Origin: a virus
UHGV virus genome: UHGV-1507039
DNA: 33,215 nt
Direction: 5' to 3' (one strand)
Shown one piece after another: positions 27,682 through 32,967 of this stretch (the stretch's first letter is position 1; every line of letters begins with the position of its first letter). Position numbers and translations under genes: made by a program. Below the pieces are notes generated by a model that ran no database searches, had not been told where the DNA came from, and saw nothing but the letters and a program-made list of their open reading frames with translations.

Positions 27682-27753
27682 GCGCGGCGTTACCGCATAC
27701 CAATAACGCTTCACTCGAGGCGTTTTTCGTTATGTATAAATAAGGAGCACACC

Positions 27754-27918
27754 ATGCAATATGCCATTGCAGGGTGGCCTGTTGCTGGCTGCCCTTCCGA
27801 ATCTTTACTTGAACGAATCACCCGTAAATTACGTGACGGATGGAAACGCCTTATCGACATACTTAATCAGCCAGGAGTCCCAAAAAATGGATCAAACACT
27901 TATGGCTATCCAGACTAA
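27754..27918 (+). CDS. cIII: CIII (FtsH inhibitor, 54 aa)
   Basis: [54 protein letters not shown], lambda CIII-like; below the 60-aa ORF-track cutoff. Confidence 0.85.
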   Translation: MQYAIAGWPVAGCPSESLLERITRKLRDGWKRLIDILNQPGVPKNGSNTYGYPD

Positions 27919-28030
27919 ATTCACTATCGCCACTTTTATTGGCGATGAAAAGATGTTTCGTGAGGCCGTCGACGCTTATAAAAAATGGATATTAATACTG
28001 AAACTGAGATCAAGCAAAAGCATTCACTAA
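27887..28030 (+). CDS. kil: Kil (host killing / FtsZ inhibitor, 47 aa)
   Basis: [47 protein letters not shown]; overlaps cIII and gam as in lambda. Confidence 0.85.
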
Positions 28031-28401
28031 CCCCCTTTCCTGTTTTCCTAATCAGCCCGGCATTTCGCGGGCGATATTTTCACAGCTATTTCAGGAGTTC
28101 AGCCATGAACGCTTATTACATTCAGGATCGTCTTGAGGCTCAGAGCTGGACGCGTCACTACCAGCAGATCGCCCGTGAAGAGAAAGAGGCAGAACTGGCA
28201 GACGACATGGAAAAAGGCCTGCCCCAGCACCTGTTTGAATCACTCTGCATCGATCATTTACAACGCCACGGGGCCAGCAAAAAAGCCATTACCCGTGCGT
28301 TTGATGACGATGTTGAGTTTCAGGAGCGCATGGCAGAACACATCCGGTACATGGTTGAAACCATTGCTCACCACCAGGTTGATATTGATTCAGAGGTATA
28401 A
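27985..28401 (+). CDS. gam: Gam (RecBCD inhibitor); long form 138 aa, short GamS from internal Met at 28105
   Basis: Lambda Gam-like ([55 protein letters not shown]). Confidence 0.95.
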
Positions 28402-28406
28402 AACGG

Positions 28407-29192
28407 ATGAGTACAGCACTCGCAACGCTGGCTGGGAAGCTGGCTGAACGCGTCGGCATGGATTCTGTCGACCCACAGGAACTGATCACCACTCTTCGCC
28501 AGACGGCATTTAAAGGTGATGCCAGCGATGCGCAGTTCATCGCATTGCTGATCGTCGCCAACCAGTACGGCCTTAATCCGTGGACGAAAGAAATTTACGC
28601 CTTCCCTGACAAGCAGAACGGCATCGTTCCGGTGGTGGGCGTTGATGGCTGGTCCCGTATCATCAATGAAAACCAGCAGTTTGATGGCATGGACTTTGAG
28701 CAGGACAATGAATCCTGCACATGCCGGATTTACCGCAAGGACCGCAATCATCCGATCTGCGTTACCGAGTGGATGGATGAATGCCGCCGCGAACCATTCA
28801 AAACCCGCGAAGGCAGAGAAATCACGGGGCCGTGGCAGTCGCATCCCAAACGGATGTTACGGCATAAAGCCATGATTCAGTGTGCCCGTCTCGCCTTCGG
28901 ATTTGCTGGTATCTATGACAAGGATGAAGCCGAGCGCATTGTCGAAAATACCGCATACACTGCAGAACGTCAGCCGGAACGCGACATCACTCCGGTTAAC
29001 GATGAAACCATGCAGGAGATTAACACTCTGCTGATTGCCCTGGATAAAACATGGGATGACGACTTATTGCCGCTCTGTTCCCAGATATTTCGCCGCGACA
29101 TTCGCGCATCGTCAGAACTGACACAGGCCGAAGCAGTGAAAGCTCTTGGATTCCTGAAACAGAAAGCCACTGAGCAGAAGGTGGCAGCATGA
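28407..29192 (+). CDS. bet: Bet (Red-beta single-strand annealing protein)
   Basis: 261 aa, lambda Bet-like ([72 protein letters not shown]). Confidence 0.95.
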
Positions 29193-29869
29193 CACCGGAC
29201 ATTATCCTGCAGCGTACCGGGATCGACGTGAGAGCTGTCGAACAGGGGGATAATGCATGGCACAAATTACGGCTCGGCGTCATCACCGCTTCAGAAGTTC
29301 ACAACGTGATAGCAAAGCCCCGATCAGGAAAGAAGTGGCCTGACATGAAAATGTCCTACTTCCACACCCTGCTGGCTGAGGTTTGCACCGGTGTGGCTCC
29401 GGAAGTTAACGCTAAAGCGCTGGCCTGGGGAAAACAGTACGAGAACGACGCCAGAACCCTGTTTGAGTTCACTTCCGGCGTAAATGTTATTGAATCCCCG
29501 ATCATCTATCGCGACGAAAGTATGCGCACCGCCTGCTCTCCCGATGGTTTATGCAGTGACGGCAATGGCCTTGAGCTGAAATGCCCGTTTACCTCCCGGG
29601 ATTTCATGAAATTCCGGCTCGGTGGTTTCGAGGCCATAAAGTCGGCTTACATGGCCCAGGTGCAGTACAGCATGTGGGTGACGCGAAAAGATGCCTGGTA
29701 CTTTGCCAACTATGACCCGCGTATGAAGCGTGAAGGCCTGCATTATGTCGTGATTGAGCGGAATGAAAAGTATATAGCGAGTTTTGACGAGATGGTGCCG
29801 GAGTTCATCGAAAAAATGGACGAGGCACTGGCTGAAATTGGTTTTGTATTTGGGGAGCAATGGCGATGA
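29189..29869 (+). CDS. exo: Exo (lambda 5'-3' exonuclease, Red-alpha)
   Basis: 226 aa, lambda Exo-like ([93 protein letters not shown]). Confidence 0.95.
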
Positions 29870-30024
29870 AACATCCTCACGATAATATCCGCGTAGGCAC
29901 GATCACTTTCGTCTACTCCGTTACGAAGCGAGGCTGGGTATTTCCCGGCCTTTCTGTTATCCGAAATCCCCTGAAAGCACAGCGGCTGGCTGAGGAGATA
30001 AATAATAAACGGGGAGCTGTATGA
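29866..30024 (+). CDS. Small early protein, lambda orf60a-like (52 aa)
   Basis: [52 protein letters not shown]; ATGA-coupled to exo stop and to the next gene start. Confidence 0.6.
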
Positions 30025-30578
30025 CTGATTTCACCGGAAGCAATACTCCTGCCGAACATCGCGACAGCTGGCGCACACCACCAGAGATTTTTGCTGCGCT
30101 TAATGCAGAGTTCGTTTTTCAACTTGATGCTGCCGCCAGCGAAAAAAACCGACTATGTCGGCTTTTTATCTCACAGGAGCAGAACACATTAACCACTTCA
30201 TGGCCTGAAGCAATGGGATATGCCTCTGGTTATGTCTGGTTGAATCCACCATACAGCAATATTTCCCCTTTTGTGAAAAAGGCAGCCACTGAAAACAAAT
30301 TCAGCAGTGTGGGATGTGTAATGTTATTACCTGCTGACACATCTGTCGGATGGTTTCATGAAGCGATACAAACCGCCAGTGAGGTCAGATTCATCACGGC
30401 AGGACGACTGGCATTTATTAACCCACTCACCGGGAAACACGTCAGTGGAAATAATAAAGGCTCGATGCTCATTATCTGGCACCCATACCCCCGTACACAC
30501 TGCCACTTTACGACCGTTGATCGTGGAGAGTTGATGGCGTTCGGCTCAAGGATTCTTGCCCGTCGGGAGGCTGCATGA
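30021..30578 (+). CDS. Second phage Dam-type DNA N6-adenine methyltransferase (early-left operon)
   Basis: 185 aa; NPPYSNI motif, W.TP and VGWF motifs shared with the nin-region methyltransferase; clearly homologous but divergent. Confidence 0.8.
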   Translation: MTDFTGSNTPAEHRDSWRTPPEIFAALNAEFVFQLDAAASEKNRLCRLFISQEQNTLTTSWPEAMGYASGYVWLNPPYSNISPFVKKAATENKFSSVGCVMLLPADTSVGWFHEAIQTASEVRFITAGRLAFINPLTGKHVSGNNKGSMLIIWHPYPRTHCHFTTVDRGELMAFGSRILARREAA

Positions 30579-30658
30579 CAACCACGGAATGCATTTTTCT
30601 GGCAGCGGGCTTCATATTCTGTGTGCTTATGCTTGCCGACATGGGACTTGTTCAATGA
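30575..30658 (+). CDS. Micro-ORF encoding a 27-aa hydrophobic peptide (MTTTECIFLAAGFIFCVLMLADMGLVQ)
   Basis: ATGA-coupled on both sides; single predicted TM helix; no homology assessed. Confidence 0.4.
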   Translation: MTTTECIFLAAGFIFCVLMLADMGLVQ

Positions 30659-30870
30659 CACCTCAGCAGGAAAACGCCCTTCGCAGCATAGCCCGTCAGG
30701 CTAATTCTGAAATCAAAAAAGCCAGACAGCAGTTTCCGGATAAAAACGTCGATGACATTTGCCGTAGCGTACTGAAGAAGCACCGCGAAACGGTAACGCT
30801 GATGGGATTCACACCGACTCATTTAAGCCTGGCGATCGGCATGTTAAACGGCGTCTTTAAGGAGCGATGA
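30655..30870 (+). CDS. Hypothetical early protein (71 aa)
   Basis: MTPQQENALRSIARQANSEIKKARQQF...; coupled within the operon; ORF track shows a longer 104-aa frame from 30556. Confidence 0.55.
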   Translation: MTPQQENALRSIARQANSEIKKARQQFPDKNVDDICRSVLKKHRETVTLMGFTPTHLSLAIGMLNGVFKER

Positions 30871-30962
30871 ACATGAAAAGCAAAATCATCAGGGAGCTAC
30901 AGGCTCCTTTTTTATTATTCGCATTCACCCTCAAGCGTATTAACCAACAATTCAGGGATTAA
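30867..30962 (+). CDS. Micro-ORF (31 aa, MNMKSKIIRELQAPFLLFAFTLKRINQQFRD)
   Basis: ATGA-coupled to the preceding ORF; speculative. Confidence 0.3.
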   Translation: MNMKSKIIRELQAPFLLFAFTLKRINQQFRD

Positions 30963-30968
30963 TGGAAG

Positions 30969-31187
30969 ATGGCAGACATCATTGATTCAGCATCAGAAAT
31001 CGAAGAATTACAGCGCAATACAGCAATAAAAATGCGTCGTCTGAACCACCAGGTTATATCTGCCACTCATTGTTGTGAGTGTGGCGATCCCATAGATGAA
31101 CGAAGACGCCTGGCCGTTCAGGGTTGTCGGACTTGTGCAAGCTGCCAGGAGGAGATCGAACTTAAGAACAAACAATGGGGATTGTGA
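30969..31187 (+). CDS. TraR/DksA-family C4 zinc-finger protein
   Basis: 72 aa with CxxC(17)CxxC (CCECGDPIDERRRLAVQGCRTCASC) preceded by a helical segment. Confidence 0.7.
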   Translation: MADIIDSASEIEELQRNTAIKMRRLNHQVISATHCCECGDPIDERRRLAVQGCRTCASCQEEIELKNKQWGL

Positions 31188-31234
31188 TGGCCTCAAAGCA
31201 GCAAATTTCAACATCGTCCAACTGAGGTGTAAAA

Positions 31235-31513
31235 ATGTTCAGAATCATTTTGCCTAACACCTGGTACGTCGACCACCACGGCACTCCCTGCAAAATCCTG
31301 CGTTCTACCCACAACAAAGTTCACTACATCCGAAAAGGCAGAACATGTATCGCCAGCATGTTCCGCTTTAATCATGACTTTGAACCTGTGAATAAAGCTG
31401 ATGCAGATCGGATAGCAGAAGAGATCGAAACGGCAGAACACATTAAGAAGTTACGTGACATGCGTTCAAAAAGCAGAGGTAACCATGGAATCATACAGCC
31501 TCACACTCGATGA
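31235..31513 (+). CDS. Hypothetical protein (92 aa)
   Basis: Open frame between the zinc-finger gene and xis; overlaps the proposed xis start by about 28 bp; no recognised motif. Confidence 0.45.
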   Translation: MFRIILPNTWYVDHHGTPCKILRSTHNKVHYIRKGRTCIASMFRFNHDFEPVNKADADRIAEEIETAEHIKKLRDMRSKSRGNHGIIQPHTR

Positions 31514-31856
31514 GGCCTGTCAGTTTCTTAAGATATCCAGACCAACCGCCACCAACTGGATACGAACAGGCCGCCTACAGGCAACACGTAAAGATCCAAC
31601 CAAGCCAAAATCTCCTTACCTCACAACACGGCAAGCCTGCATTGCGGCGCTTCAGTCTCCGCTGCATACTGTCCAGGTGAGCGCGGGTGATGGCATAACA
31701 GAGGAAAGAAAATGTCACTCTTCCGCAGAAATGAAATATGGTATGCCTCGTATTCGCTCCCGGGCGGGAAACGAATTAAGGAATCTCTTGGCACAAAGGA
31801 CAAGCGGCAAGCTCAGGAGTTGCACGACAAGCGAAAAGCAGAACTCTGGCGAGTAG
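31485..31856 (+). CDS. xis: Excisionase, AlpA/MerR-like HTH; 3' end uncertain because the frame overlaps int by about 145 bp
   Basis: From [36 protein letters not shown] (excisionase-type winged HTH); position immediately upstream of int. Confidence 0.55.
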
Positions 31857-32875
31857 AAAAGCTAGGGGATTTACCTGATGTCACTTTTGAAGAGGCCTGC
31901 CTAAGATGGCTTGAGGAAAAAGCTGATAAAAAATCTCTCGATTCAGATAAAAGCCGGATTGAGTTCTGGCTTGAACATTTTGAGGGTATAAGGCTTAAAG
32001 ATATCTCGGAGGCAAAGATTTACTCTGCTGTAAGCAGAATGCATAACAGAAAGACGAAAGAAATATGGAAACAGAAAGTTCAGGCCGCCATCAGGAAAGG
32101 TAAAGAACCGCCTGTTTATGAACCAAAGCCAGTATCAACTCAGACAAAGGCAAAGCATCTTGCCATGATAAAGGCCATTCTCCGTGCTGCAGAACGCGAC
32201 TGGAAGTGGCTGGAAAAAGCGCCTGTCATCAAGATACCAGCGGTCAGAAACAAGCGAGTCAGATGGCTGGAAAAGGAGGAAGCAAAACGCCTTATTGATG
32301 AGTGCCCCGAACCACTGAAATCTGTCGTCAAGTTTGCGCTGGCAACTGGTCTGAGAAAGTCGAACATCATAAATCTGGAATGGCAACAAATCGACATGCA
32401 GCGACGAGTTGCCTGGGTGAATCCAGAAGAGAGCAAATCAAACCGCGCCATTGGTGTGGCGCTGAACGATACCGCCTGTAAAGTGTTGCGTGATCAAATA
32501 GGCAAGCATCACAAATGGGTGTTTGTACATACCAAGGCGGCTAAGCGAGCAGATGGAACATCAACGCCTGCGGTCAGGAAGATGCGCATCGACAGCAAGA
32601 CATCATGGCTATCAGCTTGTCGTCGTGCAGGAATTGAAGATTTCCGTTTCCATGACCTCAGACACACCTGGGCAAGCTGGCTGATTCAGTCAGGCGTCCC
32701 ATTATCAGTGCTTCAGGAAATGGGCGGATGGGAGTCCATAGAAATGGTTCGTAGGTATGCTCACCTTGCGCCTAATCATTTGACAGAGCATGCGAGGAAA
32801 ATAGACGACATTTTTGGTGATAATGTCCCAAATATGTCCCACTCTGGAATTATGGAGGATATAAAGAAGGCGTAA
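31712..32875 (+). CDS. intD: Tyrosine integrase, DLP12 IntD-type
   Basis: 387 aa; C-terminal catalytic region with HDLRHT and RRYAHL(a)P motifs; adjacent to tRNA-Arg. Confidence 0.93.
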
Positions 32876-32890
32876 CTGATTGAATTGTAA

Positions 32891-32967
32891 TGGCGCGCCC
32901 TGCAGGATTCGAACCTGCGGCCCACGACTTAGAAGGTCGTTGCTCTATCCAACTGAGCTAAGGGCGC
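32891..32967 (-). tRNA. argU: tRNA-Arg (anticodon UCU), argU-type; likely carries the prophage att core at its 3' end
   Basis: 77-nt minus-strand sequence GCGCCCTTAGCTCAGTTGGATAGAGCAACGACCTTCTAAGTCGTGGGCCGCAGGTTCGAATCCTGCAGGGCGCGCCA with cloverleaf features, anticodon loop CTTCTAA and encoded CCA. Confidence 0.9.

Follow-up and report, generated by a model that had tools for sequence, protein, structure and literature searches.

A candidate 27-codon gene among the overlapping exo-xis cistrons of a lambdoid prophage, with a re-reading of lambda orf61

Genes and features at the locus

The virus genome UHGV-1507039 (33,215 nucleotides, nt; 'the window' below means this whole stretch) carries, downstream of its exonuclease gene exo, a series of very small open reading frames (ORFs) whose stop and start codons overlap. 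One of them, a hydrophobic ORF of 27 amino acids (aa), is our main subject, together with the adjoining orf61, a 31-aa ORF behind it, and orf73. We analyzed window 27985-32875, whose + strand carries the end of a lambdoid early-left operon. To judge by identity and gene order, the block is the lambdoid exo-xis early region, whose biology is mostly known and which is a very common prophage module. Over this block the DNA is 95–99% identical to phages lambda, 434, 21, and Shiga toxin (Stx) phages, where the gene order is exo, orf60a, orf63, orf61, orf73, and the annotations agree; window 30575-30990 matches lambda 30592-31008 (complement) at 98.6% identity. The interval 29800-31300 has matches in 184 phage records and in 3,687 of 5,426 complete Escherichia coli genomes (90–100% identity). 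The exo-xis region influences prophage induction, and hence Shiga-toxin release, and has been studied at length by the Wegrzyn and Donaldson laboratories.

On the + strand the genes run gam, bet, exo, orf60a (DUF1317), the gene for a DNA methyltransferase (Dam), the 27-, 71-, and 31-aa ORFs, and a TraR-type gene (Table 1). The block occupies the same slot as in lambda, between exo and xis/int, and has the same predicted terminators, t1 and t2; the high identity to lambda extends over orf60a, the 27-aa ORF, orf61, the 31-aa ORF, and orf73. It differs from lambda in that the Dam methylase fills the orf63 slot exactly, from start codon to stop codon, that ea22 and ea8.5 are missing, that the gene next after orf73 is a DUF4222 gene, and that orf61, frameshifted in laboratory lambda, is intact.

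Table 1. Features of the exo-xis block and its upstream edge (positions in the window)
Feature	Position	Strand	Evidence and remarks
Lambda_thermo (cIII translational thermoregulator)	27741-27799		Rfam, 88.5 bits; upstream of gam
ATGA overlap bet/exo	29189-29192	+	sequence
exo (lambda exonuclease)	29189..29869	+	PF09588 YqaJ, E=3.3e-29; upstream anchor of the chain
ATGA overlap exo/orf60a-like	29866-29869	+	sequence
orf60a-like (DUF1317, 52 aa)	29866..30024	+	PF07026, E=1.8e-34; phrog_1998
Terminator-like hairpin t1	29930..29952	+	inside orf60a; 9-bp stem, 6 GC pairs, T-rich tail
ATGA overlap orf60a-like/Dam	30021-30024	+	sequence
Phage N6-adenine DNA methyltransferase (Dam, 185 aa)	30021..30578	+	PF05869, E=1.7e-56
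ATGA overlap Dam/27-aa ORF	30575-30578	+	sequence
27-aa hydrophobic ORF	30575..30658	+	MTTTECIFLAAGFIFCVLMLADMGLVQ; ATGA overlap at both ends
ATGA overlap 27-aa ORF/71-aa ORF	30655-30658	+	sequence
Orf61, intact 71-aa form	30655..30870	+	phrog_303, E=4.7e-36, profile positions 23-93 only
ATGA overlap 71-aa ORF/31-aa ORF	30867-30870	+	sequence
31-aa ORF, likelier 29 aa from ATG 30873	30867..30962	+	identical to lambda 30715-30620 (complement)
Terminator-like hairpin t2	30891..30918	+	inside the 29/31-aa ORF; AGGGAGCU-ACA-GGCUCCUU then UUUUUUAUUAUU
TAATG overlap 31-aa ORF stop/7-aa ORF start	30960-30964	+	sequence
7-aa ORF (MEDGRHH)	30962..30985	+	begins in TAATG; overlaps the TraR-like ATG 30969
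Orf73 orthologue, TraR/DksA C4 zinc finger (72 aa)	30969..31187	+	PF01258

A chain of overlapping stop and start codons

A preliminary description of this DNA had proposed a chain of ATGA-coupled small ORFs downstream of exo, and all of the overlaps can be read in the sequence. The five ATGA links are real; the chain, however, does not stop at the 31-aa ORF but runs on through a TAATG to a 7-aa ORF, so that conserved overlaps, five ATGA and one TAATG, join its cistrons. The assignments given there to the orf60a-like gene and the methyltransferase likewise hold (Table 1).

Related loci were gathered from IMG/VR, metagenomes, and phage records with anchors outside the 27-aa ORF (347 loci, 119 haplotypes); ORF integrity was counted in a first set of 219 loci, and polymorphism between GTG and ATG starts in 72 haplotypes. 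Two of the ATGA junctions are polymorphic to GTGA, that at 30867 in 41 of the 72 haplotypes and that at 30655 in 13 of them, and in both cases the A-to-G change is silent in the upstream gene and leaves a GTG that can serve as a start. In 316 of 317 loci the ATGA at the head of the 27-aa ORF is retained, whatever gene precedes it, which is Dam in about 44 and an orf63 variant in almost all others.

Coupling by termination and reinitiation at ATGA or TAATG overlaps has classical examples in trpE-trpD and trpB-trpA. The genes here are arranged as a similar coupling would require: the overlaps are 4–5 nt long, the downstream Shine-Dalgarno (SD) sequence is weak or absent (orf61), and a junction is conserved across different upstream genes. 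It departs from the classical cases in that two of the links are micro-ORFs of 7–31 codons, one of them spanning an intrinsic terminator.

A 27-codon ORF under purifying selection

The 27-aa ORF is identical in lambda (31008-30925, complement). It is missing from the lambda RefSeq annotation and from that of the Prokaryotic Genome Annotation Pipeline (PGAP), and the few GenBank or UniRef entries that carry it call it 'hypothetical protein'. None of the papers searched mentions the peptide or an 'orf2321', and neither of the small-ORF peptides of the block is in the Sakai small-ORF supplements.

An open frame of 27–31 codons is not significant in itself, and we rejected open-frame length as evidence of coding. 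Since length is uninformative at this size, we used conservation and the pattern of substitutions, taking counts of synonymous to non-synonymous variants (S:N) and omega for each reading frame, by haplotype or by locus. All 219 loci of the first set have the ORF intact, with its ATG start and its 27 codons, and in 192 of them the peptide is identical. Its own frame there shows S12:N7 (omega 0.22, p=0.0011), whereas the other two frames over the same DNA, one of which is the frame of a 93-aa form of Orf61, give S4:N15 (omega 1.45, p=0.82). Omega of the 27-aa frame, about 0.2–0.4, is like that of its neighbors; the own-frame controls in the first set are 0.41 for orf61 and 0.33 for traR.

The 119 haplotypes give a similar picture. 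All polymorphisms present in more than seven haplotypes are synonymous in the 27-aa frame, the counts being S10:N6 for variants in at least two haplotypes (p=0.0036) and S9:N4 for those in at least three (p=0.002), and synonymous variants are commoner than non-synonymous ones (Mann-Whitney p=0.0016). Moreover, the SD sequence of the ORF (GGGAGG, -10.3 kcal/mol) is the strongest of the chain. Together these data support reading the 27-aa ORF as a real gene in which the sequence of the peptide counts; the selection is seen in the variants themselves, and from it we infer translation.

The same data bear on a different role, in which the ORF would be translated only as a coupling spacer leading from orf63 or Dam into orf61, its peptide being functionless and degraded. 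The ATGA overlaps at both of its ends and the weak SD of orf61 would suit a spacer. So would the orf61 copies that lack the ORF and have an SD of their own, the loss of the ORF in a few relatives, and the lack of any family, motif, or homolog of the peptide outside the block. A spacer would, however, tolerate amino-acid changes, and the near-invariance of the peptide and the wholly synonymous character of its common polymorphisms are not what such tolerance predicts. The same genomes also hold an internal contrast, for the spacer-like 29/31-aa ORF farther along the chain has frequent non-synonymous variants. We regard a spacer without a functional product as improbable and prefer a gene with a selected peptide.

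As to what that peptide might be, its grand average of hydropathy is 1.62 and its highest Kyte-Doolittle value over a 19-residue window is 2.33 (usual threshold 1.6). From this hydropathy the product is probably a very hydrophobic single-pass inner-membrane peptide. Enterobacteria have small single-pass membrane proteins and type I toxins such as KdpF (29 aa), TisB, Ibs, and ShoB. The 27-aa peptide resembles them in its size (19–35 aa), its one strongly hydrophobic segment, and its few charges, and its hydropathy profile is close to that of KdpF. It differs from them in lying inside a coupled operon, not at a standalone toxin locus, and in having no sequence similarity to any family; no antisense RNA paired with it turned up, though no search aimed at one was made. 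The peptide belongs to no Pfam, PHROG, NCBIfam, or PADLOC family, and a search for deep homologs with these collections and tblastn returned none.

Several points weigh against this picture. When all singletons are counted, many of them from metagenome contigs of low (1–3x) coverage, the p value for selection becomes 0.029 by locus and 0.057 by haplotype, and the test counts about 25 mutations, the block being 95–99% identical. The uninterrupted hydrophobic core has about 15–16 residues (about 15–20 hydrophobic residues in all) and there is no basic residue, so that membrane insertion and topology are uncertain. A tblastn search of 50,697 phage records found only the same lambdoid block (at least 92.6% identity); with no homolog outside Escherichia lambdoid phages, there is therefore no deep test of conservation. 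Some mosaics (the L324 type) do without the ORF, and in the copy from Escherichia sp. E1V33 a 14-nt deletion destroys it. Furthermore, a review of lambda ribosome profiling names only a 7-aa and a 31-aa ORF as additions to the region (PMC8614690), and knockdown of the annotated orf60a, orf63, and orf61 spares lambda plaque formation, N being the only gene of the pL operon that is needed.

Two side observations concern this ORF. In the E1V33 copy (locus L009, 1400-1720) the deletion fuses the ATGA start into the orf61 frame, which yields a 93-aa fusion; the upstream neighbor is a 355-aa gene whose product has a DGQHR motif, and no TraR gene lies downstream. This copy may be a remnant in decay or a mosaic of another kind. 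Separately, two 428-aa proteins (P0006 and P0007, from Logan and ENA assemblies) fall into the same 90%-identity protein cluster as the 27-aa peptide, possibly through a gene fusion, a miscalled gene, or an artefact of the clustering.

The start and identity of Orf61

The start codon of orf61, an ATG here and a GTG in some relatives, lies in the ATGA overlap with the stop of the 27-aa ORF. The product matches phrog_303 and its gene stands between orf63/Dam and orf73; its DNA is 98.6% identical to that of lambda, lambda's extra A (below) aside. The 71-aa frame has an omega of 0.3–0.5, and the SD sequence of the gene itself is weak (-3.9 kcal/mol).

Databases hold a longer form, and one could argue that the real gene is this 93-aa Orf61, begun at ATG 30589, and that the 27-aa ORF overlaps it by chance and gives rise to no product itself. 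The annotations of phi24B, 933W, and many E. coli genomes have the 93-aa form, whose exact sequence occurs in about 997 contigs; PHROG 303 was built on it, the classical lambda orf61 annotation reads its frame, and in the E1V33 copy that frame is ATGA-coupled to the upstream gene. Where the two frames overlap, however, omega is 0.9–1.5 for the long Orf61 frame and 0.2–0.4 for the 27-aa frame, and no SD precedes ATG 30589. The PHROG 303 match and the confident AlphaFold fold cover only residues 23-93, which make up the 71-aa form; Donaldson, who had noted the truncation of lambda Orf61, modeled residues 24-93. An AlphaFold model of the 71-aa form has three helices and a mean predicted local distance difference test score of 86.5. 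Independent mosaic variants of orf61, whose N-termini are unrelated, all start at the methionine of the 71-aa form, those without the 27-aa ORF have their own GAGG SD before the same start residue, and PGAP now gives Orf61 71 aa in an identical genome. The start at 30589 is not supported by this evidence, and we judge it very unlikely that a 93-aa gene accounts for the segment; the 71-aa form, preceded by a separate 27-aa gene, is the better reading.

PGAP and many GenBank records name this protein 'cell division protein ZapA'. The score against PF05164 is 16.1 bits, below the cutoff of 23.8, and a Foldseek search of the Orf61 model against the PDB gave no match at E<=0.001 and no ZapA. Because the score is sub-threshold and there is no PDB match, the name is unsupported, and it looks like an annotation artefact that has spread; a homeodomain identity was rejected in the same way, for want of a significant structural match in the PDB. 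The family search for Orf61 found members confined to Escherichia.

Laboratory lambda has a run of seven A residues (about 30870-30864) where the window (30713-30718) and almost all relatives have six. With the extra A, the true Orf61 ends after 29 aa, counted from its real start. In its classical form, lambda 'orf61' has 61 aa from lambda 31024 onward. Read against the 71-aa gene, it joins an upstream frame that is not under selection to the truncated true gene.

A predicted terminator inside the 29/31-aa ORF

The ORF behind orf61 is likelier to yield 29 aa than 31, since its first codon at 30867 is so often GTG and a good SD (AAGGAG, at an ideal spacing of 7 nt) precedes ATG 30873. Phage 21 annotates the 29-aa form, and the 29-aa frame is intact in 218 of 219 loci. 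For the 31-aa ORF, omega is 0.58–0.71 (p=0.15–0.35) and non-synonymous changes are common (S to N, R to M, T to I). The hydrophobic run of its product is encoded by the T-run of a predicted terminator, and its Kyte-Doolittle value stays below the transmembrane level.

That terminator, t2, sits inside the ORF and not after it. Its RNA folds into an 8-bp hairpin followed by a U-run (-10.2 kcal/mol, z=-2.1), and the stem core shows a single G-to-A singleton (30903) among the 119 haplotypes. The hairpin is identical to the sequence listed as t2 for lambda and phi24B, which is a predicted terminator of Bloch et al. (2014) that overlaps a predicted promoter, p1; lambda mRNA levels drop downstream of it (PMC4195576). 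A leader-peptide attenuator was considered for the ORF and rejected, as folding of 30870-30925 gives the terminator hairpin only, with no competing structure.

Beyond the TAATG lies the 7-aa ORF, whose lambda equivalent reads MKDGRHH (30620-30597); the ORF, and with it the TAATG link to orf73, is intact in 217 of 219 loci. Two lambda ORFs added to this block, orf2311 and orf2313, come from ribosome profiling that is reportedly that of Liu et al. in 2013. The Donaldson review describes them as ORFs of 7 and 31 aa, respectively (PMC8614690), and the Gourse laboratory equates Orf73 with Orf2310 (PMC9239242). Ordered by their starts, the minus-strand ATG-ORFs of lambda begin at 30613 (73 aa), 30620 (7 aa), 30709 (29 aa), and 30715 (31 aa), which fits the series 2310–2313 exactly and therefore pairs the 31-aa ORF with orf2313 and the 7-aa ORF with orf2311. 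Matched in this way by length and numbering, the two ORFs appear to be those of the review. The 31-aa peptide is identical to its lambda counterpart and the overlaps are the same; the 7-aa peptide differs in one residue (E/K).

It is possible, though we think it rather doubtful, that the 31-aa ORF has no role as an ORF, the segment being simply t2 (and perhaps p1) and any ribosome footprints incidental. The hairpin and T-run in mid-ORF fit such a view, with the FLLFAF stretch of the product encoded by the T-run, as do the non-significant omega of 0.6–0.7, the change of the ATGA start to GTGA in most haplotypes, and the fall of lambda mRNA across t2 (PMC4195576). Yet the near-complete openness of the 29-aa frame is accompanied by the lack of nonsense variants in it, some being found in the other two frames. 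AAGGAG is ideally spaced before ATG 30873, although these six bases are also part of the codons that end Orf61; the connection to orf73 through the TAATG and the 7-aa ORF is preserved; and the review reports translation of the 31-aa ORF in lambda (PMC8614690). We favor a cis-acting role, in which the 31-aa ORF is probably a translated relay whose peptide is itself not functional.

The preliminary description had argued from the repeated overlaps that the micro-ORFs are translated, and had looked to synonymous and non-synonymous changes for a check. The substitutions agree with this for the 27-aa frame, which is under purifying selection, and the 31-aa ORF fits the profiled orf2313; the peptide of the latter shows no detectable constraint, and for it overlap is weak evidence of function.

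Orf73, a TraR/DksA-type zinc-finger protein

The gene at the end of the chain was earlier described as TraR-like with a C4 zinc finger, and this assignment is upheld by PF01258 (zf-dksA_traR; 35.2 bits against a cutoff of 24.9, E=1.2e-8) and by phrog_54, 'DksA-like zinc-finger protein' (E=2.8e-25). The subfamily model TIGR02419 (C4_traR_proteo) is a near miss, at 54.6 bits under a cutoff of 59.7, which leaves the Pfam assignment unaffected. The protein matches F-plasmid TraR over its full length (PDB 5w1s_M) and lambda Orf73 at 64 of 71 residues (90% identity, E=7e-48), in the same place after the 31-aa and 7-aa ORFs. Omega of the gene is 0.33–0.42.

Orf73 shares with the lambda protein and TraR its length class, its operon position, a DxxDxA motif (D3-I-I-D6-S-A8), and four zinc cysteines (Cys35/38 and Cys56/59). 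It differs from lambda Orf73 in the last 12 or so residues, and RNA polymerase binding and promoter effects are known from the lambda protein. That protein requires the DxxDxA motif, competes with DksA for RNA polymerase, inhibits rrnB P1 with a half-maximal inhibitory concentration near 50 nM, slows host growth, and raises phage yield about fourfold (PMC9239242). By analogy, the Orf73 of the window is predicted to bind the RNA polymerase secondary channel. The earlier statement that none of the small genes here is functionally defined does not stand, given that lambda Orf73 is a characterized RNA polymerase binder (PMC9239242) and that phenotypes of orf60a and orf61 have already been published.

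A proposed order of events

Our overall explanation, which we consider reasonably probable, is that of a coupled exo-xis operon with a genuine 27-aa gene, a 29/31-aa ORF acting as a relay in cis, and Orf73 as a polymerase binder. The setting would be a segment of the pL operon of a lambda-type prophage at tRNA-Arg(TCT), subject, by analogy with lambda, to N antitermination. Stop and start codons that overlap by 4–5 nt make it possible for ribosomes to restart on the next cistron, so that ribosomes finishing one would begin again in the order orf60a, Dam (in place of orf63), the 27-aa gene, Orf61 (71 aa), the 29/31-aa ORF, the 7-aa ORF, and Orf73. Because the UGA of the 27-aa ORF overlaps the AUG or GUG of orf61 and the SD of orf61 is weak, the 27-aa ORF probably also hands ribosomes to orf61. 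Ribosomes crossing the t2 hairpin would then lower termination or polarity before the handover to orf73 through the TAATG and the 7-aa relay. Once made, Orf73 in the secondary channel of RNA polymerase would shut rRNA and ribosomal-protein promoters, as experiments with the 90%-identical lambda protein showed for that protein. A counterweight to this scheme is that N antitermination should largely override t2, which limits what translation could contribute there.

Published orf61 alleles

The arrangement has consequences for lambda genetics. The 'orf61' frameshift of the Wegrzyn laboratory deletes the C at lambda 30957, which corresponds to window 30626 and lies in codon 18 of the 27-aa ORF, upstream of the true Orf61 start. 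Their delta-orf61 removes lambda 30971-30889, that is, codons 13-27 of the 27-aa ORF and the first codons of orf61, and the orf61 that it hits is already broken in lambda PaPa. Delayed prophage induction is reported for the 'orf61' alleles (PMC4195576). Since these mutations fall inside the 27-aa ORF, the delayed-induction phenotypes could be due to the missing 27-aa peptide or to lost coupling, and not to the loss of Orf61. We put forward tentatively the stronger proposal that the 27-codon ORF is an unrecognized gene in both lambda and the Stx phages for a conserved membrane peptide that explains the delayed prophage induction and the pro-lytic phenotypes of the 'orf61' mutations.

For annotation, the 5' part of 'orf61' in lambda and 175 phage records is better read as three units: a 27-aa hydrophobic gene, a separate 71-aa Orf61 (disrupted in laboratory lambda), and a relay translated across t2. 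Exo-xis genetics has used 'orf61' alleles that disrupt the 27-aa ORF, and their phenotypes need reassigning. What is new here is modest, namely one small-protein gene candidate with population-genetic support and the re-reading of these mutants.

The orf60a-like gene and the Dam cassette

The start of the orf60a-like gene is the ATG of its ATGA overlap with exo, not the upstream ATG 29860; PGAP agrees, and the PF07026 alignment begins at residue 3 of the 54-aa form that the upstream ATG would give. An SD sequence, UUGGGGAGC, lies 7 nt before 29866. PGAP calls exo of the identical genome 'lambda exonuclease family protein'. The core and tail of the hairpin within orf60a, GCGAGGCTGGG TATTT CCCGGCCTTTCTGTTATCC, match what is given as t1 for lambda and phi24B, a further predicted terminator of Bloch et al. 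(2014; PMC4195576).

Dam scores 191 bits against PF05869 (cutoff 28.1) and 169 bits against the equivalog model TIGR01712 (cutoff 97), and has the catalytic motif NPPY at residues 75-78. Homology to lambda is lost at a common ATG (window 30021, lambda 31196) and comes back at a common ATGA (window 30575, lambda 31008). From these breakpoints, Dam replaces orf63 as an exact cassette from start codon to stop codon, in what reads as a clean mosaic exchange at gene boundaries. A full-length query that includes the Dam gene has matches in one isolated phage (PhiR30_1) and in about 244 of 5,426 complete E. coli genomes.

Flanking features and the sequence sets

Upstream of the operon tail lie a cI-like repressor gene, an N-like gene, sieB, and the cIII thermoregulator RNA; the presence of this RNA indicates a lambda-type cIII region upstream of gam. 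An Rfam scan of the window found nothing besides the thermoregulator and a tRNA, and promoter-like sites on the minus strand are at chance level only. Beyond the TraR-type gene come the DUF4222 gene, a truncated excisionase-like gene, and an integrase adjoining tRNA-Arg(TCT). The excisionase-like helix-turn-helix gene (31485-31550) is flagged by PGAP in the identical genome as a pseudogene whose C-terminus is missing, and for that reason the prophage may be unable to excise. The integrase, within 31712-32967, is named intD by PGAP and adjoins the tRNA-Arg(TCT) at 32891-32967 on the minus strand.

Among the related loci, two with about 51% identity to Orf61 (L227 and L228) were left out of the statistics: they are frameshifted, error-ridden copies of the same DNA and not true divergent homologs, and their use as distant Orf61 relatives in a synteny test of the small ORFs was ruled out for these sequence errors. 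Hits outside Escherichia in GTDB species-representative genomes are nearly all laboratory lambda contamination; they carry the lambda-specific frameshift and therefore add no diversity. A group of such contigs (L010-L023), labelled Shewanella, Bradyrhizobium, Pseudomonas, Paenibacillus, Kitasatospora, Oceanobacillus, and others, holds the block at 100% identity and also has the laboratory-lambda frameshift, visible as a 214-nt match to orf61; lambda DNA looks to be a contaminant of the public assemblies behind them.

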